Part shown: positions 300 to 13,081 of the stretch, one piece after another
Position numbering within the stretch: the stretch's first letter is position 1
How the letters are laid out: each line of letters opens with the position of its first letter
From: Sulfolobus acidocaldarius DSM 639
GTDB lineage: Archaea; Thermoproteota; Thermoprotei_A; Sulfolobales; Sulfolobaceae
NCBI RefSeq assembly: GCF_000012285.1
Contig: NC_007181.1
Location: 1,680,001 to 1,712,000, forward strand
DNA: 32,000 bases
Direction: 5' to 3'
The notes under the pieces: model-generated
What the model saw: the letters and a program-made list of their open reading frames with translations, nothing else
Database searches by the model: none
What the model was told of the DNA's origin: nothing
Translations under genes and position numbers: made by a program

Positions 300-885
300 G
301 GTATTCAGTTGCTTTTTCCTAGTCTCTGACCAATCAGAACACGGTAAATATTGAACTCCTCATACTTTCATCTTTTACCTCGTCCTTGTCTATGCAGGTA
401 TGTCTAATAAAGACTCTATGCTCTTTTATAGTGTCTTGCAACATCTTATCTCCTTCTGCATTCTTAGCTTTACTACAGTCTGAAAGGAGTATCTCTCTAA
501 TCCTTGCATCAATCCTAGCCTTAGAACATTTAATATGTTCTATAGCATCATTCATATACCTTTCATCTAGCGTTTCCTTGATCTCCACGAAAACGCCTTA
601 TAACTGTAGTCCTTTCCGCTCTCAAAGCAGTATCTTACTTCATCCTTCTCATAACTAACTTTCTGAGTTACACAGAGTGCATCTACGCTTTTCCATATGT
701 TGTGAGCTTATCATATTTTATGCACAAGACTCCTTCTCCAACACTTATGAGCCCATTTAGTTTCAATGTTCTCTTCCTCCCTGCTTATCAGCTCTTTTAT
801 ACCCTAATTAGAAGCAGGGAATATAGTCTTAAATGACTCCACAAAGCCCTCCTCATCTACCTTCCTCCCCTTTTCGTGTATTTAA
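300..885 (-). pseudogene. Decayed inverted copy of the 3' end of the ABC-type ATPase gene plus its small partner gene (paralog of 3990-4540)
   Basis: The reverse complement of about 300-885 aligns by eye with 3990-4540. Example: 700-752 versus 4110-4160 (ataagtgttggagaaggagtcttgtgcataaaatatgataagctc). The ATPase tail reads VDEEGFVESFKTIFPASN*GIKELISREEENIETK, with an in-frame stop and the terminal TGA changed to TGG. The partner-gene copy needs at least two frameshifts to follow MKLNGLISVGEGVLCIKYDKL..KSVDALCVT..VEIKETLDERY. Only the last 84 codons (334-588) remain as an intact ORF. Confidence 0.65.
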
Positions 886-2047
886 TCACAAGTAGTAACA
901 GTACCACCACTACTAGAGCCGTGATAACAACATATAATGATAGACCCTCTGTGGTCGTCGACGATGAAGGACTAGAGTTACTAGAGGTATTCATTGAAGT
1001 AGAGTTACTAGAGCTATTGATTGAGGTAAAGTTAATGGAAGAGTTAACGTATTCTGCCACAAGCCTCCCACCCTCATCTATATACACGGTCTCAGGAGAC
1101 GGTAGGTAAAACACCTTCGACCTTACACCGTCTATTTCCACAGGTTGGGGAAAACTCAACTCTATCTTCTTCTCTAGTGCGAACGTGTAGTTTATGGTCA
1201 TGAACGGGCTTACCCTATCTCCACTATCAAATGGAGTTTGATTTTCGAAAAAGTGTTCACCATTCGAAACCCACAGGCTGTCTGGAGGGAAAGTGTATAC
1301 CGTGTTATTGACTATAACGACACTGAAGTTATAGAGTAGCTGAGGGCTAGTAACGTTACCATATACTACCCAGACCCTTCCGTTGTAATAGTAAGCTGTA
1401 CCGTTATAGGCTCGCTCTCCGGTGTTAACCCAACCGCTGTAAGCTACTGGCGGGACATACCAGCTCCCATTGTACTTGTATAAGCTCACTATCGATATGT
1501 TAAAACCCTTAGCCAGATAGGATATCTCCCCATTTCCATAGCCCGCTACAACAGTACCAATGGTATAGCCATCGTATATTATGTCCAAAAACTTTCCTTC
1601 CAAGATGTAGGTCTTCTCGAAAGTTGAAGTCCCGTCTGACGCGTAGAAGGTTATCACGGTGTTGTTTCCTTCAGGAGTCCAAATAGTGGTCAAGTTTATC
1701 TCATTTCCCATAAGGTAAGATAGACGAGAGACGTCATAGTGCCCGTTATAGTAAACACTGGTGGTCCAGATAGACTCGTTGTTAGTTAAAGGTTGTATTA
1801 CGTTCTGGACGAACGTGCTCTCTCCGTTCACGTTCAGGTAGATGTTCTGCTGTACGGAGATCATAGGTGATCCAGAGGCTAGAGAAATGTTATACATAGT
1901 TATTATGGACTGGATTCCTTCCATTTCCACGTATCCGAATTCATATCCATAGTTTGTGGGTTCATAAATTATCTCCCCAGAGGAGTGGGTTGATGAAAGA
2001 GAGAGGAGTAATAACAATAGAGGGACTACAAATCTTAGTATGCACAT
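857..2047 (-). CDS. Secreted, C-terminally membrane-anchored surface glycoprotein (function unknown)
   Basis: N-terminal signal-like segment MCILRFVVPLLLLLLSLSS. Many N-x-S/T sequons across the body. Ser/Thr-rich stalk (SSSNSTSMNTSSNSSPSSSTTTE) followed by a hydrophobic anchor (LYVVITALVVVVLLLLVI) and a basic tail KRGGR. This topology is typical of Sulfolobales surface proteins. Confidence 0.75.
   Translation of the reverse strand: MCILRFVVPLLLLLLSLSSTHSSGEIIYEPTNYGYEFGYVEMEGIQSIITMYNISLASGSPMISVQQNIYLNVNGESTFVQNVIQPLTNNESIWTTSVYYNGHYDVSRLSYLMGNEINLTTIWTPEGNNTVITFYASDGTSTFEKTYILEGKFLDIIYDGYTIGTVVAGYGNGEISYLAKGFNISIVSLYKYNGSWYVPPVAYSGWVNTGERAYNGTAYYYNGRVWVVYGNVTSPQLLYNFSVVIVNNTVYTFPPDSLWVSNGEHFFENQTPFDSGDRVSPFMTINYTFALEKKIELSFPQPVEIDGVRSKVFYLPSPETVYIDEGGRLVAEYVNSSINFTSINSSSNSTSMNTSSNSSPSSSTTTEGLSLYVVITALVVVVLLLLVIKYTKRGGR
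975..1028. repeat. Two tandem 27-bp units (24/27 identical) inside the Ser/Thr-rich stalk of the 857-2047 gene
   Basis: 975-1001 is gagttactagaggtattcattgaagta and 1002-1028 is gagttactagagctattgattgaggta. A more diverged third unit follows. The units encode the 9-aa repeats INSSSNSTS / MNTSSNSSP on the minus strand. Confidence 0.8.
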
Positions 2048-2916: not shown

Positions 2917-4107
2917 ATGAAAATAAGAATTAACAACATTGGTCCCATTAAGGAGGCTGACCTCGAGTTTTCTGATAAAGCCGTGATAGTTGGTGGAAAT
3001 GCGACCGGAAAGACGTTCATTGCCGCGTTAGTGTACTTTTTACTTAATCCATTGATCATGGTAGACAGACCCTTAAAGTATAAGCTAGAGCTCCCTGCTA
3101 AGATAGAGGAAAATAGGGAGGTCTCCCTCGAGATTCCAGTAAATTATAAGGACATAATGGAAGAGAATAAAGATTTAATCGGTGCAGCAGTTAAAAGGAC
3201 ACTAACTTCTATATTTGGAGCCAGTATCGGAGAGCTTATAAGATTTCGGGAGACTGAGGGTGTTGTAGAAAACGAAAAAATTAAAATTATTCTACATAAG
3301 GAAAACGTTGAAGTAATTCCAAAAGTTGACCAGAGAGAAAACCTAAACGTCCAAATATTTAAGACCTCCAATAACTTTCCAGGCTGTGTTACTTCCATAA
3401 GCCCAGACGGTAAAATTGTGGTAATGGGTAACAGACCAGAGATATGTCTTGAGAATTCAATAGGGAATTTTATCCTCACAAGGTTCTTAGTTGACCCTTC
3501 CTATTCTCCTGTGGCATACATTAGTACTGAGAGAATAGCATCAATATTTTATCTGCCAAGCAACTTAAACAGGCTAATTCTACCTCCAGTGTCCGCTAGC
3601 CTAGTTAAGCCCCTAATCGCCGATTTTCTAAAGTATATAACGCCTAATACTAAATTTACTTTGTTTGGTCATGAAATAGAGGTCAATAAGGAGCTGATGA
3701 TTAAGGTGTCTAAAGAGGGAAAAGAGGTGAACTCTTCACTGGTGTCTACTGGAATATACCAATTTATCCCTGTGGAGCTTGCCCTACAGCATCCGCTATT
3801 GAAGACGGTGATAATAGAAGAACCCGAAATAAACTTGCACGTTAATGCACAGATTGAGGTAGCAAAAAGATTAGCCCGTGAAAAAGCTAAAAAGTTGCTT
3901 ATAACTACTCACAGTGAATGGATACCAATGTATGTAGCAAAGCTATCTAAGGGTTCGAAGATCTACGAGATTGTAGAAGGTGTGTTAGAAGAAAGGAAAG
4001 TAGATGAGGAAGGTTATGTAGAAACGTTTAAGACTATATTCCCTGTGGCTGATAAGGGTATAAAAGAGCTGATAAGCAGGGAGGACGAGAATATTGAAAC
4101 TAAATGA
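2917..4107 (+). CDS. ABC-type (AAA_15/AAA_21-like) ATPase
   Basis: SMC/ABC-like N-terminus MKIRINNIGPIKEADLEF..VIVGGNATGKTF (Walker A at aa 26-33). Signature-like LVSTGIYQ. Walker B TVIIEEPEINLH. H-loop LITTHSEW. The layout matches stand-alone ABC ATPases that are often paired with a small effector gene. Confidence 0.8.
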   Translation: MKIRINNIGPIKEADLEFSDKAVIVGGNATGKTFIAALVYFLLNPLIMVDRPLKYKLELPAKIEENREVSLEIPVNYKDIMEENKDLIGAAVKRTLTSIFGASIGELIRFRETEGVVENEKIKIILHKENVEVIPKVDQRENLNVQIFKTSNNFPGCVTSISPDGKIVVMGNRPEICLENSIGNFILTRFLVDPSYSPVAYISTERIASIFYLPSNLNRLILPPVSASLVKPLIADFLKYITPNTKFTLFGHEIEVNKELMIKVSKEGKEVNSSLVSTGIYQFIPVELALQHPLLKTVIIEEPEINLHVNAQIEVAKRLAREKAKKLLITTHSEWIPMYVAKLSKGSKIYEIVEGVLEERKVDEEGYVETFKTIFPVADKGIKELISREDENIETK

Positions 4108-4540
4108 GCTGATAAGTGTTGGAGAAGGAGTCTTGTGCATAAAATATGATAAGCTCTACAGGATTGGAAAGAGCGTCGATGCGCTATGTGTGACTATGAA
4201 AGTTAATGAAGAAGAGAGAAAGAGGTATTGCTTCGAAAGCCAGAATAATGAAAGTTATGAGGCAATTCTGGTAGAAATCAAAGAAAAGCTAAACGAAAAG
4301 CATCTGAAAGAAGCCATAGACCAGATTACATGTTCTAAGTCTAGGATCGATGCAAAGATCAGAAGGGCATTTATACTCCTTTCAGACTGTAGTAAAGCTA
4401 AGACTGCACAGGAAGATAAGATGTTATTGGAGGCAATGAAACAGTACAAGATCCATATTACAAACGTTTGCCTAGATGTGGATGAGGTTAAAGATGAAAG
4501 TACAAAGAATCTGATAAATACTGCAACTGAGTTGAGTTAA
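4094..4540 (+). CDS. Small partner protein of the ABC-type ATPase (unknown function)
   Basis: The TTG start lies 14 nt inside the end of the ATPase gene. A diverged paralog survives at 334-588 on the minus strand, about half of residues identical by eye over the shared C-terminal region. Conserved CSK(S/A)RIDA..LLSDCSKAK..DEVKDES segment. I recognise no catalytic motif. Confidence 0.6.
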   Translation: MKLNELISVGEGVLCIKYDKLYRIGKSVDALCVTMKVNEEERKRYCFESQNNESYEAILVEIKEKLNEKHLKEAIDQITCSKSRIDAKIRRAFILLSDCSKAKTAQEDKMLLEAMKQYKIHITNVCLDVDEVKDESTKNLINTATELS

Positions 4541-4781: not shown

Positions 4782-6024
4782 AGTCCACTGACAACGGTTT
4801 ATAAATATCTTGTCAGTAAACTATCAAATAAGGAAGTAATAAACAGGATTAATCCTTGGTGGTTCTACGAGAACTGGGAGTCAAAGGATAAGCACCTAGC
4901 AGAGTGGAGTTCTCAGAAGTACAGGTGGACTCCACGGTGGATCAGCGAGCTTTCTCTAGAGCCCTTCAGCTTAAACTTTGTTTATGGCACTAGGCAGACT
5001 GGAAAGACCACAGGACTAAAGCTGTTGATAAAGGAGGTAATAGAGAGGGGGAACTTTTCGCCAATGGCTATCTACTACATGGATCTGGACTATGTCACAT
5101 CCCTTTCAGAGTTCAGGAGGATTTTAGGGAATGTGATCAAAGAGAGGAAGAAAAGGGGTCAGACTGAAAACTTAATAGTCCTCGATGAGGTTACGTCTGT
5201 TGACGAGTGGTGGAGGGTACTAAAGTTCTTCCTTGACGAGGGGGAGTTTAAGGATGATGTTATCATAGTGAGCGGTTCCTCCACGCTAGGTCTAACAAAG
5301 GTTCCAGAGAAGTTTCCGGGAAGAAAGGGTAAAGGGAAAGGGATTAAGGTGCCCACATTATCTTTCCCGGAATTTGCAGAGGTCTTAGGTCACAAGAGAG
5401 AGGGCTTACTCTACGATAATTCCAGAGCCTTAGCTCTGTTTGAAGATTATAAGATGAAGGGAGGATTTCCTAAGTCTATTAACGGTAACCGTGATGCGAG
5501 AGGTGCCCTAATCGACGGGATATTGTCTGAAGTGTACAAGCACAGTAGGAGTCCAAGAATAGTTCAGGATATTCTGTACTCACTGATGGACAAGATACCT
5601 TCAGCAATATCTTACAATTCAGTAGCTAATGAACTTGGGATTTCCCACAACACGGTAAGGGAGTACCTAGATTTTCTCTCCGACATACTCCTGATTGGAA
5701 TTGCCTTTCTAAAGGAGGGAGACGAAGTAAGCTGTCAGAAAGGAAAAGAAAGTGTTCTTTCGGGATCCATTCATATTACACTCAACCTCTGAGTGGGTAG
5801 GAAGAGAATTTAATAACAGTGCTCTCTTGGAGAGCGTAGTCCAAGAGCATCTGTTCAGGAAGTTCGGTGAGGTCTACTTCTTCAAGGGCTCCTATGAAAT
5901 AGGCGTGGTCTCAGGAGAGTATAAGATAGAGGTGAAGAGTGGGAGGGCTCATAGGGGATACCCAAGGGGTGTTACTGTGCTATCAGAAGAGAGTATTCCA
6001 AGGTTCCTGTTGGAGCTCCTGTGA
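4782..6024 (+). pseudogene. AAA_14 / DUF4143-type ATPase, disrupted (no canonical start before the P-loop, plus one frameshift)
   Basis: The frame is open from 4782 and encodes ..INPWWFYENWE..LNFVYGTRQTGKTTGLKLL (P-loop at 4986-5012). No ATG/GTG/TTG occurs in frame before the TTG at 5025, which is downstream of the P-loop. The frame also breaks at about 5725-5735: ..AFLKEGDEV then continues in frame +1 as RKEKKVFFRDPFI.. (ORF 5752-6024). Confidence 0.7.
4798..4807 (+). promoter_or_regulatory. TATA-box-like element upstream of the AAA_14-type ATPase pseudogene
   Basis: tttataaata matches the Sulfolobus TATA consensus (TTTAWATA-like). It lies just after the in-frame stop at 4779-4781 that opens the reading frame. 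Confidence 0.35.
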
Positions 6025-6231: not shown

Positions 6232-6642
6232 ATGGAAGTTATTATACATCCCCATGTCTATACTAAAGGTATTTCCATAGACTCCTACACAAAATTATTC
6301 GGAGAATTTTCTGAATTACATTGGAGTAATAGTGAGTTGGGTGAAAAAGGTTTAAGAGCTATTGAACCTTATAAGGATGTAAGATCTAAAATTGTCATCT
6401 TATTTGGTACATACGGCATAGGAGACTACACAGATGACAGTGACGTCAACCTTCTGGTAATATCTAGATATTGGCTGAAAGATCACATAGAAACCTTTGG
6501 TACGCTATATAGGATTTGGAGACATAAAGTGATTCTGACACATATGACTGTTAATATTTTCCTGAACAGGTTTAGAGCCTGTAGCATTTTTGTCCTAAAA
6601 ATATGGAGGATGGAAACATCTCATGTGATGAGGAGGTGTTGA
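6232..6642 (+). CDS. Minimal nucleotidyltransferase (MNT-like, HEPN-MNT toxin-antitoxin family type)
   Basis: ILFGTYGIGDYTDDSDVNLLVIS matches the MNT signature G-[ST]-x-x-x-G-x(4-6)-SD-x-D-L-L-V. The C-terminal third is odd. An alternative frame near 6600-6690 reads PKNMEDGNISCDEEVLISEVYRIFR, so the 3' end may be frameshifted. Confidence 0.6.
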   Translation: MEVIIHPHVYTKGISIDSYTKLFGEFSELHWSNSELGEKGLRAIEPYKDVRSKIVILFGTYGIGDYTDDSDVNLLVISRYWLKDHIETFGTLYRIWRHKVILTHMTVNIFLNRFRACSIFVLKIWRMETSHVMRRC

Positions 6643-6894: not shown

Positions 6895-7158
6895 ATGCAG
6901 AACAAAAGGACTGAGAACGATATCGAGAAGTTGAAGGTAATACTCAATGTAGTGATGCAATACAAACTATCTGGACATGTTAATGATGAAATAGTAAAAA
7001 GACTAGCCCTAAGCGTAAAGTCATTGAAGTACCTGAGAAATGAAGAGTATGGACCAAGAATTGACAAAACCTTTAGCCTTTTAATACAGAATAAACTCGA
7101 TGAGGCAATTAAAGAGATGAGAGATATAATACTGAGTTTTTATGGTGGGCATGATTGA
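6895..7158 (+). CDS. Small, apparently all-helical protein, first gene of the RAMP operon (possible Cas11-like small subunit; unproven)
   Basis: 87 aa with a charged, helix-favouring composition. Its TGA (7156-7158) overlaps the TTG start (7155) of the Cas7-like gene. The Cas11 idea rests only on position and composition. Confidence 0.5.
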   Translation: MQNKRTENDIEKLKVILNVVMQYKLSGHVNDEIVKRLALSVKSLKYLRNEEYGPRIDKTFSLLIQNKLDEAIKEMRDIILSFYGGHD

Positions 7159-8339
7159 TTAAGGTCATACCTGTATTAATAAAAACCATGTCGATAACTA
7201 GGATAGGATCTACGGGTGTATATTTTGACTACGCCTCTGCTGATATAGTAACTTATAAATTGCCCCTTCAAGATTCTAACGAAGTTTACTATATTCCAGC
7301 AATACCTGCGACATCTTTTAAAGGTTTACTGAGGTCAACATATGAGAAATACCTAAGATGGAATAATGTAGGTTATCAGAGGAGAGAGGTTAAGAAAGAA
7401 CGAATCAAGAATATAATTAATGAATATAGTGTTAATCATGGCGATACGGTTAAGGAACTGGTTGAGGAAATGAAGAGCGAACTACGGAGGTATATATCGG
7501 GTGGGCTGATTAAAAACACAAATCTTCCTGACGACATTACAGAGCTAATTATACTCTACTTAAACGTAACTGGTTGGAACAGTAAGGACGCATGTTACGT
7601 AACTTCAGACCTAGACCAATGTGTTAATTTAAGTATTATAGAAGACGAAGGTGTGAGAAAAAAGAAAGAGTTGTGGTTAAAGCTTATGGAGAGAGACCAA
7701 ATATGTAAGGTGTGTAATGTTTTAGGTAGTTCAGGGGTAAGGGGAAAAGTCAAGTTTACGGACTTAATAGCTGTGGACCCATTCCCTGTGTATATCGAGA
7801 GAAGTACTCATATAGCCATAAATAGATTGACAGGTACTGCAGAAAAAGGGAAGATCTTCACGGAAGAGATAATACCTCCGGGTGTTAAATTCTTGGGTTT
7901 TGTTGCAGTGCTAGATAACTCTATCCTCAACCAGGTTAGGGAGATGTTAAGAATACTAAAGACCAAGGCAGAGAGGGGAGAGGTCTGGATAGGAGGTAGG
8001 GGTACAGCTGGGTACGGTACCTTTGAGATGCACCTCCCACCTGAGATAATTGAGTTTTCAACACACTCCTTATTTAGGGGTAGACGTTTAGGGTTAAAGG
8101 AGAGTGAGCCAGCTCCTAATCCGACTATAGTTAATGGTATCATTAGTAAGCTATACCCGAGTAGTTTTACTTCTTCGTTGGTAGAGGTCACTGAGGGTGA
8201 GGTAGAGTACGAGGTGGTTATTGAAGGTGAAGGAGTAACTAAGGTTAAATCTGTTGATGATTTAAAGAAAATTACAAGTGAGCTTGATAAATCTGGTAAA
8301 AAGTACCAAATAAAAACACATGGTGAATATCACCTATGA
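7155..8339 (+). CDS. cas7: Type III Cas7-like RAMP protein (Csm3/Cmr4-like) with a long internal insertion and a C-terminal extension of about 100 aa
   Basis: RAMP hallmarks in the translation are: N-terminal strand MIKVIPVLIKT..RIGSTG; IPATSFKGLLRS (aa 50-61, cf. IPGSSlKGalRs); CKVCNVLGSSGVRGKVKFTD (aa 184-203); HIAINRLTGTAEKGKIFTEEIIPPGVKF (aa 219-246, cf. iDR.TG.a...LF..E.vp.G..F); and the Gly-rich loop IGGRGTAGYGTF (aa 279-290). The TTG start at 7155 overlaps the upstream stop. The in-frame ATG at 7188 is an alternative start. Confidence 0.8.
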   Translation: MIKVIPVLIKTMSITRIGSTGVYFDYASADIVTYKLPLQDSNEVYYIPAIPATSFKGLLRSTYEKYLRWNNVGYQRREVKKERIKNIINEYSVNHGDTVKELVEEMKSELRRYISGGLIKNTNLPDDITELIILYLNVTGWNSKDACYVTSDLDQCVNLSIIEDEGVRKKKELWLKLMERDQICKVCNVLGSSGVRGKVKFTDLIAVDPFPVYIERSTHIAINRLTGTAEKGKIFTEEIIPPGVKFLGFVAVLDNSILNQVREMLRILKTKAERGEVWIGGRGTAGYGTFEMHLPPEIIEFSTHSLFRGRRLGLKESEPAPNPTIVNGIISKLYPSSFTSSLVEVTEGEVEYEVVIEGEGVTKVKSVDDLKKITSELDKSGKKYQIKTHGEYHL

Positions 8340-8653
8340 ATCTCGATTTAAACTTAAACGGGATTAACGTTAGTTTCAAGATAGATACTGGCTTTGACGG
8401 AGAGTGCTTACTTCCACACGATATATTCAGTAAAATAGGTGGATATGAATATGACGGCCCTCCGGTCAGCTTGAGCGATGGAAGGGGATACCTGACGAGG
8501 GCTAAAATTGTGGAAGTTGTCTTTAACGGAAAAAATCTCATTTTGGAGTGTATATCAGTAGTGTACATAAATAAGACATTGCTAGGAGAGAGGGCACTCT
8601 CTAAATTAGGAATATTGATAGACTACAAAAACCAGGGGGTCAAAGACCCATGA
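8336..8653 (+). CDS. Retropepsin-like (clan AA) aspartic protease, single-domain monomer
   Basis: FKIDTGFDGECLLP carries D17-T18-G19 (nt 8384-8392). VSLSDGRG follows, and the C-terminal TLLGERAL (aa 81-88) corresponds to the retropepsin I/L-x-G-R-x-x-L motif. At 105 aa it is the size of one retropepsin subunit. ATGA overlaps occur at both ends (8336-8339 and 8650-8653). Confidence 0.75.
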   Translation: MNLDLNLNGINVSFKIDTGFDGECLLPHDIFSKIGGYEYDGPPVSLSDGRGYLTRAKIVEVVFNGKNLILECISVVYINKTLLGERALSKLGILIDYKNQGVKDP

Positions 8654-9336
8654 TTAAATTGGTCATAAGGTTAGAACCATCTACTGGTTATGTTATATCT
8701 GGTGAACCCTCTCCAGATAGAAAAGTAGAGTTCAACGCTAGTATATTTTATAGTTATCCTTATATCAACCCATCTACAATAAAAGGCTTTTTGAGGTCTG
8801 CAGCCGTTTACGGGTATCCTGATGTCTCATGTGAAATTCTAAGTTCCAAAACCATTATAAGTAACATAGATAGAATAAAGAAAAAAATACATAATGAGGA
8901 GCAAATTAGACTAAGTTTTATGTGCTCTGATATAGAGGATCTGTTAGAGAACAGGAATAGTAGGGAGGCAAGCGTATATTTAGAAGTGTTAGGTGATATA
9001 ATCCGTAAGCTAAAAAGACCTTGTAAGGTCTGCAGAGTTTTTGGTAACGGTAGTGTGAAGGGGAAACTCAGAATTATTTATCAAATTCGACCTTTAAATA
9101 CTACTGAGATTAAAGGGTTAAAATTCAGTAGGGAGTATAAGGAGAATAGGGAAGGTCTAAGTGTAATGATGTCCAAAGATCCCATAGAGTTCACTGTTTT
9201 GTGTGAAGATAAAGAGTGTCAGGAGGTAATAAAGAGAGCAGTTAGTGTAATTAACGATAGTGTAGTGAGACTAGGTAGGTTTAAGTCTAGAGGGTTCGGA
9301 ATAGTTAATGCAAAAATAGTATCAATGAGTACTTGA
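8650..9336 (+). CDS. cas7: Second, shorter RAMP protein (Cas7-group, paralog of the 394-aa protein)
   Basis: MIKLVIRLEPSTG..; INPSTIKGFLRS (aa 39-50); CKVCRVFGNGSVKGKLRI (aa 125-142, nearly the same motif as in the 394-aa protein); Gly-rich loop RLGRFKSRGFGIV (aa 207-219). Confidence 0.7.
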   Translation: MIKLVIRLEPSTGYVISGEPSPDRKVEFNASIFYSYPYINPSTIKGFLRSAAVYGYPDVSCEILSSKTIISNIDRIKKKIHNEEQIRLSFMCSDIEDLLENRNSREASVYLEVLGDIIRKLKRPCKVCRVFGNGSVKGKLRIIYQIRPLNTTEIKGLKFSREYKENREGLSVMMSKDPIEFTVLCEDKECQEVIKRAVSVINDSVVRLGRFKSRGFGIVNAKIVSMST

Positions 9337-9705
9337 ACATTCCGATAAAATTTCCTCCTCTTTCTTCCTATCTATAATGTTTCTGCTCCCATTTTCCTTA
9401 ATAGTTATGTAATTTAGGGCATTCTCGATCATATTAAACAGTCTGTCGCATTCCTCTTGCTCATTTATCAAGCAAATTATTTTTAATTCATTAGGTTCAT
9501 AAGACATTAAAATCCTCGACATGAAAGGTAGGTCTTTTTTACCACTACCAAATACACTCCTGTCAAAATCTCTGTTGCATAGAAGTGCATAGCATCTTAT
9601 AAACGACTTCAGTGTCCAAAGACTCCTCTCGATATTAGAACCCAACTCAACTCTAATTGCGTATATTTTAGGGCTCTTAGGGTCATACTTCAATATCCAT
9701 CGCAT
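9322..9705 (-). CDS. Hypothetical protein, last gene of the Cas10-like operon
   Basis: 127 aa. The start overlaps the end of the upstream 245-aa gene by 16 nt. The stop region overlaps the 3' end of the convergent RAMP gene by 15 nt. No motif recognised. Confidence 0.5.
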   Translation of the reverse strand: MRWILKYDPKSPKIYAIRVELGSNIERSLWTLKSFIRCYALLCNRDFDRSVFGSGKKDLPFMSRILMSYEPNELKIICLINEQEECDRLFNMIENALNYITIKENGSRNIIDRKKEEEILSECSSTH

Positions 9706-10427
9706 GGCGCAATCACTCCTGTACCCGCTTTCACATACTCTTTAGTATAATGCTCAATTGAATCCAGTGAACCAGGGAATTTATTGTAGAAACTACCAAA
9801 TTCATTGGATTCGTTGTACCTAAATGTGCATAGTAACACATTACGATCATTTTGCACCTCCTTTACCTTTTTGTCTTGCATATCAAAATAATACACTTTT
9901 CTATCTAGACCTAAGAAATTAGTGTTGTTAAACCTTTGAACAGTAATTCTCCTTAAGTAACCTCTATATTCCCCTAGGCTTTCCACGTCTTTCACAGGAA
10001 GATTGTGAACGCATAACTCATTACTTCTAGCCGTATACTCGGATATTTCAACCATCTCGAATACAGTATAGTTATTCCCAACTAGAACTAGATACTTTTT
10101 CAACAAATCTTCAACGGATCGCAGGTCACTAGATATCACATAACCTTGAAAGTCCACATACGGACCATCCTTTGAGATTAGCTTATGGTACAAATATGGC
10201 ATGGAATAGTTCACAACTCTATCTAGCCTTATCCTTAATCTATCATAGTGTTTAACTTTGTTACCATTTCGTTTAACGATGTAGAAATTAGTGAACATTA
10301 TATCATAACTCCTTGTGTCCTTATTTATCACCATACCGTAGACTAAACCACCTGCAATAGTCGTAGATGGTAGTACATCCGCTCTATATCCATTGTATGC
10401 CCTTAGAACAGCCTTTAACAATTTCAT
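9690..10427 (-). CDS. Cas5-group RAMP-like protein (Csm4/Cmr3-like), tentative
   Basis: The N-terminal VLPSTTIAGGLVYGM (aa 18-32) resembles the lPS.Tl.GAl motif of Csm4/Cmr3. A weak C-terminal Gly loop KAGTGVIAP is present. An ATGA overlap (10424-10427) joins it to the upstream Cas10-like gene, the usual cas10-cas5 adjacency of type III loci. Confidence 0.5.
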   Translation of the reverse strand: MKLLKAVLRAYNGYRADVLPSTTIAGGLVYGMVINKDTRSYDIMFTNFYIVKRNGNKVKHYDRLRIRLDRVVNYSMPYLYHKLISKDGPYVDFQGYVISSDLRSVEDLLKKYLVLVGNNYTVFEMVEISEYTARSNELCVHNLPVKDVESLGEYRGYLRRITVQRFNNTNFLGLDRKVYYFDMQDKKVKEVQNDRNVLLCTFRYNESNEFGSFYNKFPGSLDSIEHYTKEYVKAGTGVIAPCDGY

Positions 10428-13081
10428 GCCAACAACCTCGCCACGTATGCCATTATAATATCATCTCTTTCATATTTAACAGAGAATGGTTTTCGATCTG
10501 ATGAATACCTCTTTACGTATTTCTCAAACCCTTCTACTTTCTTATACTCCCTGAACTCTGGATAAGTTACATCTGGCGCAGAAGATACTACGAATTCATT
10601 GAGCTTCTGAGGATCTCCATGCTCAGATATCCTTTTGAAAGCAGTAAATAGTTCATTATAACTGAAAGAATTAAGGTCACCTATGGGCATACCACCTTTG
10701 TTCAATATCACTGGCACCACATCTACTACCCTGATATCGTCCTTGCCATTAATCTCTGTAACTTCTCTGTCTAAGAGCCTAAATACCATATATAGAGGTG
10801 TTTCAGGCTTTGCCTTTATAAGGAAAATTTTTATTGAATGTTCAAGGATTGCTTCCTGAGCTCTACCAGGAGTGTCAAAGATACCAAAGACCTTGCCTAT
10901 TAAATCTAATACTTTTGGTAAATCATCTTTCTTAATAGCGAGCATAGAATACTCAGTAGTTGATGATGAAGGTATCAAAGTGATATAATCTATGTTGCTA
11001 TTTATTAGTAGGTATTCAAGATATTCTACTAGAATTGAGAAATGGATCTTTAGTGAGAAAGTCCTATCTAAAGAGATGGATATATCAATCATTTCATTGT
11101 TTTCAGCACTAATCATCTTTACAAATTCTAGACGCTTTTTAAAAAATTTTAATCTCATTTCATTCTCTGGATCATTTGTCAGTGTCTTCCGAGCTATATT
11201 GTTTATTAACATGTTATCCTTCTTTTTTGACTTGTCAACCCCATTTATCATTAGTATACTTTTTATCATACCTTTGAGAGTTGTTCCATTTTCAGACTTG
11301 CACAGACACTCTACTAAAAATTCAGAAATGGTGTCTGCGTCTGGTTTACTTAAACTAGATAGTTTTTCTAAATATTTCCTCAAGAATAATTCTATACATC
11401 CTTGAAAATTCTGATTGAAATTACAATCTTTCTTTACAGGGTAAAAATCTTTTATTTTTTCGGTCATGCCTTTAATTACATTTATAATTTCAGACAAGAA
11501 TTCATTTAGGCTAACTTCTAGTTTATTAACCTCAAAGAAATCTGATATACTAATTTTTCTGTCCTTTAAAACGTGCTTCATATCTAACTTGAAAACAAGG
11601 TAAATAAGATCTTTCCCCTTTGCAAATTCATCGATGCTTTGTCTCACTAAAATTTTCTCAGTCCTCTTTAGATACAATCCCTCATCTCCAGTCTGTTGCC
11701 TAACCTCTCCAATTAAGCTACTTGCTATTCTAGTGGTTAAACAAATGTCACAAAGCCTTTCATCCTCCTTGACAATAAACATGCTCCTAAGTTCATCCCA
11801 TATGGAATCTTCCAACTTTACGGCTTTCCTGACTTTACACTTATCACATAACTTATCCGAAGTGATACTTCCATCGTACTCAATTTTAATGATCCTGAAA
11901 TAATCGGTATGATCTGTGGTTTTCAGTAATTCATTAACTTTCTCAGCTAACTTTATCTTATCCTCGCTGTCCTTTTCAACCTTACCTAACTCTGAGACTA
12001 CTAATATTATATCGCTTTTCCTTTCAGTGCGTTTAGGGGGTTTGTCGGATACTAATTTAGGCCACGCATGTGTGTATATTGTCTCAATGGTATCTTTAAG
12101 ACTAGTCTTTGTACATTCTTCTAGAGATTTTTCATCGTTATAGAAGACAGTTAAAAAGCTCTTTATTTGACTAGGATTAATCTCCTCAGATTCATGGATG
12201 TATACGTTGAACACGAATGAGTTGAAGAAGTCTACTATGGACATATTTAGGAAAGCATAAAGCCCTAAATTCTCCGTGTCTAGAACCTTCTCTAGAGCCT
12301 TTTGAAAATCTATATTAAGTTTATCCCACAGGCAAAGATTAAGATGATACAGGAAAATATTAGTAATGATATATAGTCCCCTTACATCCTTAAGGGTTCT
12401 TAGATCGGTCTCGAAAGGATTAGAAATGCTGAACACTTTCACGACGCCTTTCCTAAACAATAGATCTGCTAATAAAGCACCCTTAAGGTGTGCTAAAACA
12501 GATATATCGTTACCAGAAATCCAACTTCTCTGGGGAAAAAACTTGATCGAGTCAATTAGAGAACTAAAAGTTTTCATGTCAAACGGCTTACCATTTTCTG
12601 CAATATTACGTAGTTGATCATAAGTCCCATTACCATACTTGAAGTCAATAAAATTCCTTACGTACTCACTACTAAGGTCTTTAAACCAATTTTGGAACAA
12701 TGATCTTTCTACCTTGATTGATCTTCCATTATTTTCCTCTAATAAAATCGGAAACCCCCTTAAATCAAAGGAAATGACTATTTTTGAAGGCAAATCATTC
12801 ATGACATTTTTAAAGAGCTCCTGGTCTCTTGACTGTGCCTCTATTAGTTTTTCCGACTCTTCTGCAATACTTGCAATATGGTCGCATATCTCGTAGTAAG
12901 TAGAGTCATTTTTATCTCTACCTGCTGGTAAAATACCCTTAAAGAGGTCATGTATATAACACATTACAGGGCTTTGCCCATAATCTGCCAACATATAATT
13001 TCTAAGTACTTCATCATGACCTAGTGAACCCACATGTAGAATTAATGAACTATAAAATAAATTCTTTATCCTACTCGTCAT
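10424..13081 (-). CDS. cas10: Cas10-like large subunit, divergent (zinc finger retained, canonical GGDD cyclase motif not found)
   Basis: 885 aa. CDKC-x28-CDIC (aa 412-447, nt 11741-11848) is like the Cas10 treble-clef zinc finger. ISVLAHLKGALLADLL (aa 193-208) resembles the conserved sL.dH...taaiA.aL segment. LIYLVFKLDMKHV (aa 492-504) is a candidate first Palm2 strand. IDYITLIPSSSTTEYSMLAIKKDDLPKVLDLIGKVF (aa 697-732) sits where vYaGGDDl.lvG.wd.v would be expected. N-terminal His/Asp candidates are LILHVGSLGHD and YIHDLFKG. The RAMP gene context supports the call. Confidence 0.55.
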   Translation of the reverse strand: MTSRIKNLFYSSLILHVGSLGHDEVLRNYMLADYGQSPVMCYIHDLFKGILPAGRDKNDSTYYEICDHIASIAEESEKLIEAQSRDQELFKNVMNDLPSKIVISFDLRGFPILLEENNGRSIKVERSLFQNWFKDLSSEYVRNFIDFKYGNGTYDQLRNIAENGKPFDMKTFSSLIDSIKFFPQRSWISGNDISVLAHLKGALLADLLFRKGVVKVFSISNPFETDLRTLKDVRGLYIITNIFLYHLNLCLWDKLNIDFQKALEKVLDTENLGLYAFLNMSIVDFFNSFVFNVYIHESEEINPSQIKSFLTVFYNDEKSLEECTKTSLKDTIETIYTHAWPKLVSDKPPKRTERKSDIILVVSELGKVEKDSEDKIKLAEKVNELLKTTDHTDYFRIIKIEYDGSITSDKLCDKCKVRKAVKLEDSIWDELRSMFIVKEDERLCDICLTTRIASSLIGEVRQQTGDEGLYLKRTEKILVRQSIDEFAKGKDLIYLVFKLDMKHVLKDRKISISDFFEVNKLEVSLNEFLSEIINVIKGMTEKIKDFYPVKKDCNFNQNFQGCIELFLRKYLEKLSSLSKPDADTISEFLVECLCKSENGTTLKGMIKSILMINGVDKSKKKDNMLINNIARKTLTNDPENEMRLKFFKKRLEFVKMISAENNEMIDISISLDRTFSLKIHFSILVEYLEYLLINSNIDYITLIPSSSTTEYSMLAIKKDDLPKVLDLIGKVFGIFDTPGRAQEAILEHSIKIFLIKAKPETPLYMVFRLLDREVTEINGKDDIRVVDVVPVILNKGGMPIGDLNSFSYNELFTAFKRISEHGDPQKLNEFVVSSAPDVTYPEFREYKKVEGFEKYVKRYSSDRKPFSVKYERDDIIMAYVARLLA

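Follow-up and report, generated by a model that had tools for sequence, protein, structure and literature searches.

The aspartic protease gene of Sulfolobales type III-G CRISPR-Cas loci follows genes whose products share a predicted C-terminal domain

Type III CRISPR-Cas effectors are in several systems encoded together with a protease, as in Craspase (III-E Cas7-11 with the TPR-CHAT protein Csx29), CalpL and SAVED-CHAT. In Sulfolobales, a protease of a different kind has been catalogued since 2014 as an uncharacterized accessory gene. Vestergaard et al. (2014; PMC3973734) listed an 'Aspartic protease (Asp_prot), Saci_1895' with a retropepsin domain, found with III-D and VIII-1 modules of Sulfolobales; VIII-1 is the variant type III now called III-G. 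Shah et al. (2018; PMC6546367) reported it as the cluster 47 'protease' (SacN8_09290), which co-occurs with Csx26, and proposed peptidases as core effector genes with a possible role in Cas protein maturation. The PADLOC profile PEPT_D bears the label 'Aspartyl protease, in the type III operon in Sulfolobales'. The three names denote the same gene family, whose products of ~100 amino acids (aa) consist of a retropepsin domain and are encoded near Csx26 in the Sulfolobales variant type III operon. Here we analyze the member encoded in a stretch of 32,000 nucleotides (nt) of the Sulfolobus acidocaldarius DSM 639 genome (NC_007181.1, 1,680,001 to 1,712,000), hereafter the window, whose positions are numbered from 1. 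The gene directly follows that of a Cas7 protein ending in a ~45-residue segment, for which we coin the name EY domain. In every locus examined, the product of the gene upstream of the protease ends in this domain. The constant partner of the protease is the EY domain and not the RAMP fold of Cas7 as such.

The presence of the protease in III-G loci is not new. The preliminary description of this sequence had stated that no aspartic protease was known as an operon-core component; this does not hold, since the gene was named in 2014 and a core role was proposed for it in 2018. The shared C-terminal domain and its link to the tail of the ring nuclease Crn1 are described in neither of these studies, and the coupling between EY domain and protease appears to be unreported in the papers searched. 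The main text and two supplements of Makarova et al. (2025), which deal with III-G, do not mention the protease, and the ring-nuclease literature that we checked does not mention a protease partner. No experimental study of the protease was found in our literature search.

The window protease is 100% identical to 'clan AA aspartic protease [Sulfolobus acidocaldarius]', present on 247 contigs, and given this identity the gene is almost certainly Saci_1895. Its start codon and DTG triplet, as given in the preliminary description, were verified. The features of the gene and its upstream junction are as follows.

8205..8336, plus strand: EY domain of Cas7, aa 351-394, EYEVVIEGEGVTKVKSVDDLKKITSELDKSGKKYQIKTHGEYHL, a ~45-aa beta-beta-alpha-beta segment at the extreme C-terminus
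8322..8326, plus strand: GGTGA, Shine-Dalgarno-like motif 9 nt 5' of the protease ATG, within Gly-Glu codons of the Cas7 tail
8336..8653, plus strand: retropepsin-like clan AA aspartic protease (Saci_1895 family: Asp_prot, PEPT_D, cluster 47), 105 aa, ATG start
8384..8392, plus strand: codons GAT ACT GGC of the catalytic D17-T18-G19, inside FKIDTGFDG
8579..8599, plus strand: LLGERAL, aa 82-88, the hydrophobic-hydrophobic-Gly motif that opens the C-terminal helix (helix 85-91 in the model)

Profiles, motifs and predicted fold agree that the open reading frame (ORF) at 8336..8653 is a genuine retropepsin-like aspartic protease, as had been suggested for it. The NCBIfam model TIGR03698 (clan_AA_DTGF) matches it with 109 bits (cut-off 57.35; E 1.3e-31; model positions 11-106 of 107). 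PADLOC PEPT_D (PDLC01133) covers residues 1-105 of 105 (E 2.3e-55), and PDLC01052 matches with E 2.2e-48. The other two profiles that had been put forward, both from Pfam, stayed below their cut-offs: Asp_protease_2 (PF13650) reached 15 bits against a gathering cut-off of 24.3 (E 0.04), and gag-asp_proteas (PF13975) did not exceed its gathering threshold either. Precomputed matches to both are present on more distant homologues, so that the protease shares a clan with these models without being a member by their cut-offs. No other Pfam, NCBIfam or PADLOC domain was found in the 105 residues, which form a single domain. When 1.84 billion representative proteins were searched exhaustively with HMMER, only 22 relatives were returned at E <= 1e-3, and the ~105-aa form therefore represents a narrow clade; a profile search extended to 130 further, more distant 'clan AA aspartic proteases'. 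A search of viral contigs found no protease homologues, and plasmids yielded homologues of neither the protease nor the EY-repeat proteins described below.

A sequence search of the PDB with the protease gave no match even at E 10. Its AlphaFold model (predicted local distance difference test, pLDDT, 92.2; predicted template modeling score, pTM, 0.83) includes the C-terminal helix. The best PDB fold matches obtained with Foldseek span the full length and are all retropepsins, namely the proteases of equine infectious anemia virus (EIAV), human immunodeficiency virus 1 (HIV-1), simian immunodeficiency virus, xenotropic murine leukemia virus-related virus (XMRV) and feline immunodeficiency virus, and the RVP domains of Ddi1 (template modeling score, TM, 0.6-0.76). 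The top match is EIAV protease 1fmb (E 1.2e-5, TM 0.75, root-mean-square deviation (rmsd) 1.7 A, 94 columns); HIV-1 protease 1c6x aligns with TM 0.72-0.76. The window protease has in common with retroviral proteases (EIAV 1fmb, HIV-1, XMRV; MEROPS clan AA, family A2) a ~100-aa single-lobe fold, the D-T/S-G loop and a hydrophobic-hydrophobic-Gly motif followed by a C-terminal helix (TM 0.70-0.76, rmsd 1.7-2.5 A, 94-97 columns). By this likeness it should act only as a homodimer. It differs in that sequence identity is only 12-22%, the motif reads G-E and not G-R, and DTG lies at residues 17-19 instead of 25-27, hence one N-terminal strand fewer; it is also encoded outside any polyprotein and is not viral. 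LLGERAL had been thought to fit the pattern [IL]-x-G-R-x-x-L. Its position at aa 82-88 was correct, whereas the fit was not, as E85 and not R follows G84. In homologue alignments L82 is nearly invariant and G84 invariant, while R86 is not conserved.

The residues D17, T18, G19, F20 and G84 are invariant among 45 aligned homologues, down to about 20% identity, and the expected conservation of D17 was thereby borne out. Some close relatives have DSG instead of DTG, with D17 invariant throughout the close clade. Judged from these residues, the protease is probably catalytically competent. Alternatively, the fold might serve as a catalytically idle subunit, acting within the effector complex as an adaptor or in the manner of a Cas11-like filler; an idle structural adaptor was also among the earlier suggestions. 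The very small size of the protease and its place within the core operon would suit such a role, and among the cluster 11 'peptidase' members of Shah et al. (2018; PMC6546367), a different cluster, some are Cas11-like without an identifiable domain. However, D17, T18/S18, G19, F20 and G84 are (nearly) invariant in the 45 sequences, including every CRISPR-linked copy, and this invariant D-[TS]-G disfavors an idle adaptor. The same protease is, moreover, also paired with non-Cas partners, and Csx26 has already been proposed as the Cas11 substitute. We consider an idle subunit the least probable of the explanations discussed here.

The window contains a complete type III-G CRISPR-Cas effector locus. 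Its genes other than the protease are the following.

6895..7158, plus strand: C3a64, small alpha-helical accessory gene, 87 aa, which opens the plus-strand III-G operon (PADLOC C3a64 E 3.7e-38)
7155..8339, plus strand: major Cas7 (RAMP), 394 aa (Pfam RAMPs E 2.5e-27; PADLOC Cas7_IIIg E 2e-54)
8650..9336, plus strand: second Cas7 (RAMP), 228 aa (Pfam RAMPs E 2.4e-11; PADLOC Cas7_IIIg E 1.2e-54)
9322..9705, minus strand: Csx26, signature of subtype III-G, 127 aa (NCBIfam NF049948 E 1.3e-38; PADLOC Csx26 E 5e-39)
9690..10427, minus strand: Cas5 of type III-G, 245 aa (PADLOC Cas5_IIIg E 5.5e-87)
10424..13081, minus strand: Cas10g, 885 aa, with an HD-like N-terminus and zinc-finger cysteines (PADLOC Cas10g E 1.3e-254, 845 bits)

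Both neighbors of the protease, previously noted as RAMP genes, are thus Cas7 genes of a III-G operon. Csx26, Cas5 and Cas10g on the minus strand converge on the plus-strand order C3a64-Cas7-protease-Cas7, which places Csx26 (131.5 bits with NF049948; cut-off 50) 0.7 kb downstream of the protease. The C3a64 stop overlaps the Cas7 start, and a gene of similar size occupies the C3a64 position in five homologous loci (L001, L007, L047, L048 and L049). Makarova et al. (2025) characterized III-G as Sulfolobales-specific, with an inactivated cyclase, an apparently active HD domain and no array. The window locus agrees with this, since the GGD[DE] cyclase motif is absent from 7/7 Cas10g homologues, the HD residues are kept and no CRISPR repeat array is present in the 32-kb window. 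Across the seven Cas10g homologues, H22, H44-D45, D67 and C412/415/444/447 are invariant. Cas1, Cas2 and Cas4 had no match among the window ORFs scanned with Pfam, NCBIfam and PADLOC. The homologues with a named source all belong to Sulfolobales (Sulfolobus, Metallosphaera, Sulfurisphaera and Sulfolobaceae metagenome-assembled genomes). Linkage of protease homologues to RAMP/cas genes is non-random, with synteny kept in eight III-G lineages, and within the III-G effector operon of Sulfolobales the protease ranks as a conserved, near-core accessory component. III-G resembles III-E in operating without cyclic oligoadenylate (cOA) signaling, and the window protease resembles those of Craspase, CalpL and SAVED-CHAT in being encoded with a type III effector. 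Those proteases are caspase-like or Lon, whereas this one is an aspartic protease of clan AA without a SAVED, CARF or TPR sensor, and its association with the III-G complex is putative.

Both junctions of the protease gene are ATGA overlaps. The protease ATG at 8336 overlaps the Cas7 stop at 8337-8339, and the ATG of the second Cas7 at 8650 overlaps the protease stop at 8651-8653. In 8/8 III-G loci, the window among them, a purine-rich GG(T/G)G motif stands at the position of GGTGA. The overlaps together with GGTGA point to translational coupling of the protease with Cas7. The preliminary description had inferred both overlap-based coupling and a fixed stoichiometry; the former stands, while overlaps and a Shine-Dalgarno-like motif do not establish the latter. 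A -1 frameshift fusing Cas7 to the protease was considered and rejected, as the eight III-G loci have no conserved slippery heptamer, only the Shine-Dalgarno-like motif. A sigma-70 promoter and terminator scan of the window was uninformative since the host is an archaeon.

An alignment of nine homologues divides the major Cas7 into a RAMP core (aa 1 to ~295), a linker bearing KL[YF]P and the C-terminal EY domain. Three lines of profile evidence connect this tail with EY domains elsewhere. First, 6271 six-frame ORFs were searched with a hidden Markov model (HMM) built on eight Cas7 tails; the matches ranking next after the Cas7s were EY-repeat ORFs only (E 4.9e-6 upward), noise beginning near E 0.9. 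Second, the Cas7-tail HMM matches the tail of a divergent Crn1-like protein (E 1.3e-8), and an EY profile built from free-standing repeats and Crn1 tails matches residues 279-316 of PDB entry 3qyf (Sso1393) with E 2.9e-11. Third, hhalign aligned nine Cas7 tails with the EY profile over 43 collinear columns (probability 95.7%, E 9.4e-9). The initial EY HMM, made of free-standing repeats only, missed the Cas7 tails, and the homology appeared once more tail sequences were added; Pfam matches to the Cas7 tail and to EY-repeat proteins were all sub-threshold and inconsistent. In its AlphaFold model, the window Cas7 tail has beta-beta-alpha-beta secondary structure with a core pLDDT of 70-79. Taken together, the profile comparisons indicate that the Cas7 tail, the tail of the Crn1 proteins Sso1393 and Sis0811 and the free-standing tandem repeats are homologous.

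Three kinds of products are encoded immediately upstream of the protease: III-G Cas7, Crn1 ring nucleases of the Sso1393/Sis0811 type and free-standing proteins of three EY repeats. In all but one lineage the protease gene overlaps the upstream gene by 4-11 nt. Cas7 with the tail followed by an overlapping protease was found in the eight III-G lineages, namely the window, L001 (a Sulfolobaceae metagenome-assembled genome, protease 62% identical to that of the window), L007 (Metallosphaera hakonensis), L047 (Sulfurisphaera javensis), L048 (Sulfolobus sp. E11-6), L049, L051 and L054. Crn1 orthologues with the tail precede the protease in L008/L050, L009 and L052/L053. Those on the metagenome contigs are listed here.

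L008, 5049..6011: Crn1 orthologue before the protease
L009, 2272..3246: Crn1 orthologue before the protease
L050: Crn1 orthologue before the protease
L052, 4018..4974: Crn1 orthologue before the protease

The L008 orthologue matches PDB 3qyf over residues 1-319 (E 2e-161) as well as NCBIfam NF040951 (592 bits) and the Pfam domains Cas_APE2256 and SSO1393-like WHD. Crn1 Sso1393 (PDB 3QYF) and Sis0811 thus carry the same EY domain as III-G Cas7, and their orthologues are followed by a protease of this clade. The carrier itself is different: a CARF plus winged helix-turn-helix protein that degrades cyclic tetra-adenylate (cA4), and not a RAMP backbone subunit. In L015 (682..1930) both the Crn1 orthologue and the downstream protease are frameshifted, apparently a case of joint decay. 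For crystallography, Molina et al. (2021) cut off residues 269-322 of Sis0811, the 'predicted disordered' tail, and found unchanged cA4 binding and slightly faster cleavage in the tail-less protein, which fits a regulatory appendage. The link through the EY domain joins two loose ends, the protease of III-G and the tail in which the ring nucleases Sso1393 and Sis0811 end.

Among the nine III-G Cas7 homologues aligned, the sole tail-less one is P0148, from L045/L046. The protease slot of these loci holds an unrelated 94-aa ORF with no DTG and no overlap with Cas7. L045 (665..7911) and L046 represent a divergent III-G variant with a Cas10g of 1002 aa.

The free-standing EY proteins (L002, L004, L012, L013 and L022) are 129-134 aa long and consist of three tandem copies, followed by the protease. 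Within one protein, repeats 1 and 3 are 56-90% identical, compared with 27-66% for orthologous repeats, while repeat 2, in the middle, differs strongly from both (5-37% identity). In L014 (1887..2030) and L019 (5861..6004) the protein is reduced to a single 47-aa repeat, as compared with L013 and L012/L022, a collapse expected from recombination between near-identical repeats 1 and 3. The protease ORF downstream is truncated in L019 and L022. Head-to-tail repeats and fusions to unrelated carriers, always adjoining a dedicated protease, invite comparison with polyubiquitin: the protease would free EY units from poly-domain precursors, and the free EY domain would be the product. This is pure analogy, however; the junctions between repeats show no conserved cleavage motif, and the divergence of the middle repeat also speaks against it. 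We regard such processing as improbable, if marginally less so than an idle subunit.

The EY tail accompanies the protease across three unrelated carriers, which argues that it is the cognate ligand or substrate, and the protease most likely binds and/or cleaves it. The partners also tend to present at least two EY units (the Crn1 homodimer, the Cas7 filament and the similar repeats 1 and 3), which suits a two-fold symmetric protease dimer. Under the reading that we favor, the protease would be made by translational coupling with Cas7 and form a homodimer, as retropepsins must in order to be active. It would then dock on EY tails, many copies of which would be present on a Cas7 filament and two on a Crn1 dimer. 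The docked protease could trim or process the tail or linker, or control turnover of the tagged protein, the outcome being post-translational regulation of III-G complex assembly or activity. Physical binding, dimerization on paired tails and cleavage are steps that we infer, and we judge it slightly more likely than not that the dimer docks on paired tails and that the tagged protein is processed or turned over. A cellular parallel is Ddi1/DDI2, a retropepsin-like dimer (Foldseek matches 7d66, 4rgh, 3s8i and 4z2z) that works with a small alpha/beta recognition domain. In Ddi1 that domain is a ubiquitin fold on the same polypeptide, whereas the EY domain resides on a partner encoded upstream and is not shown to be ubiquitin-like. 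The favored reading covers both the 2018 proposal of Cas protein maturation and the suggestion in the preliminary description that the protease matures the 394-aa Cas7, with cleavage as the presumed step; the latter gains indirect support because the C-terminal extension of this Cas7 is the domain that always accompanies the protease. The EY coupling gives the function of the protease a directly testable handle, namely binding or cutting of the tail and its effect on complex assembly or cA4 turnover.

A number of observations weigh against this reading. Loci were gathered via protease homologues, so that EY domains without an adjacent protease fall outside the sample. Tail and protease were lost together in one III-G variant, which is a single lineage. 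According to Vestergaard et al. (2014; PMC3973734), some III-G modules have no protease, and it is therefore not strictly essential for interference. The structural model of the Cas7 tail is of moderate quality (mean pLDDT 63.6, last five residues <50), and Foldseek of this model against the PDB gave a best E of ~1 and did not recover 3qyf. Our search of the literature on Saci_1893-1897 yielded neither proteomic nor biochemical data on Saci_1895 and its neighbors. Finally, the linker motif K-[LIF]-[FY]-P at 8142..8159 (Cas7 aa 330-335), whose proline is invariant in the alignment, is similar to the aromatic-Pro sites at which retroviral proteases cut; we rejected KL[FY]-P as a diagnostic cleavage site because it is also kept in protease-less, tail-less Cas7.

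Outside Sulfolobales loci, the bacterial clan_AA_DTGF proteases of ~120 aa (L016-L043, metagenome contigs) likewise follow a partner gene that overlaps theirs or lies close by; its product has 82-133 aa and a predicted strand-strand-helix pattern similar to the EY domain. Some of these partners have weak DUF5678 matches, and two have weak matches to ribbon-helix-helix (RHH)-type antitoxins (RHH_3, E 0.0039, in one; ParD, E 0.11, in another). The gene layout resembles a toxin-antitoxin (TA) pair. Homology between the EY domain and the DUF5678-like bacterial partners was not established (hhalign probability 23%, P 9e-4), and the similarity is treated as analogy only.

These bacterial relatives bear on the main rival explanation, namely that the EY domain is an inhibitor that neutralizes a harmful protease and, on Cas7, keeps it latent until target RNA is bound. 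The released or activated protease would then cleave cellular or viral proteins, either as an abortive-infection or signaling output replacing cOA or as part of an addiction module guarding the cas operon. Such a TA-like switch is suggested by the two-gene cassette with the small partner first and overlapping genes, as in type II TA modules, by the adjacent upstream partners of the bacterial proteases with their weak DUF5678 and RHH-type matches, and by the genomic surroundings: free-standing EY-protease cassettes adjoin HEPN/MNT genes, and the Crn1-linked protease copy in L008 adjoins ORFs that look AbrB- and PIN-like from their sequences. Loss of the III-G cyclase motif makes another output plausible, and the pairing of EY units fits a switch as well. 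On the other hand, the EY domain in Sulfolobales comes without a DNA-binding antitoxin domain, its homology to the bacterial partners is not established, partners collapsed to a single repeat exist (L014, L019), and gene conversion alone could explain the similarity of repeats 1 and 3. We therefore hold a TA-like switch to be unlikely, though it has better prospects than precursor processing.

More specifically, the EY-protease pair might be a latent-protease switch that was captured at least twice by type III components (III-G Cas7 and Crn1), which seems somewhat more doubtful still. In that case the Cas7 filament would hold proteases on its tails and license their dimerization or release only upon target RNA binding. 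The preliminary description had suggested that target RNA might bring two complexes or subunits together and so dimerize and switch on the protease. III-G would then be an aspartic-protease counterpart of Craspase or, alternatively, carry a CreTA-like addiction module that protects the cas operon against loss; for Crn1, the cA4 'off switch' would come under proteolytic control. If target recognition turns out to control the protease, CRISPR-coupled proteolysis would extend to a third class of proteases, and III-G, whose cyclase motif is lost, would gain an output.

Further features of the window, upstream of the III-G operon, are the following.

857..2047, minus strand: 396-aa ORF without a Pfam match, containing a 27-nt tandem repeat (2.3 copies) at 973..1034
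2917..4107: AAA_15/AAA_21 ATPase, 396 aa, with PADLOC matches to PD-T4-4_A, AriA and GajA-like models
4094..4540: 148-aa ORF overlapping the ATPase gene
5025..5792 and 5752..6024: overlapping ORFs of 255 and 90 aa, the first matching PADLOC PDC-S01 ATPase models
6232..6642: 136-aa ORF just upstream of the III-G operon, with weak nucleotidyltransferase (MNT/MntA-like antitoxin) similarity

No obvious HEPN partner lies beside the 136-aa MNT-like ORF, and the other assignable genes of the window are housekeeping genes. The 255-aa and 90-aa ORFs look like one gene split by a frameshift. The ATPase and the 148-aa ORF are also found as a pair upstream of the III-G locus in L001 (62% and 50% identity), and Vestergaard et al. 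(2014; PMC3973734) probably described them as 'Cas ABC ATPase + sRRM'.

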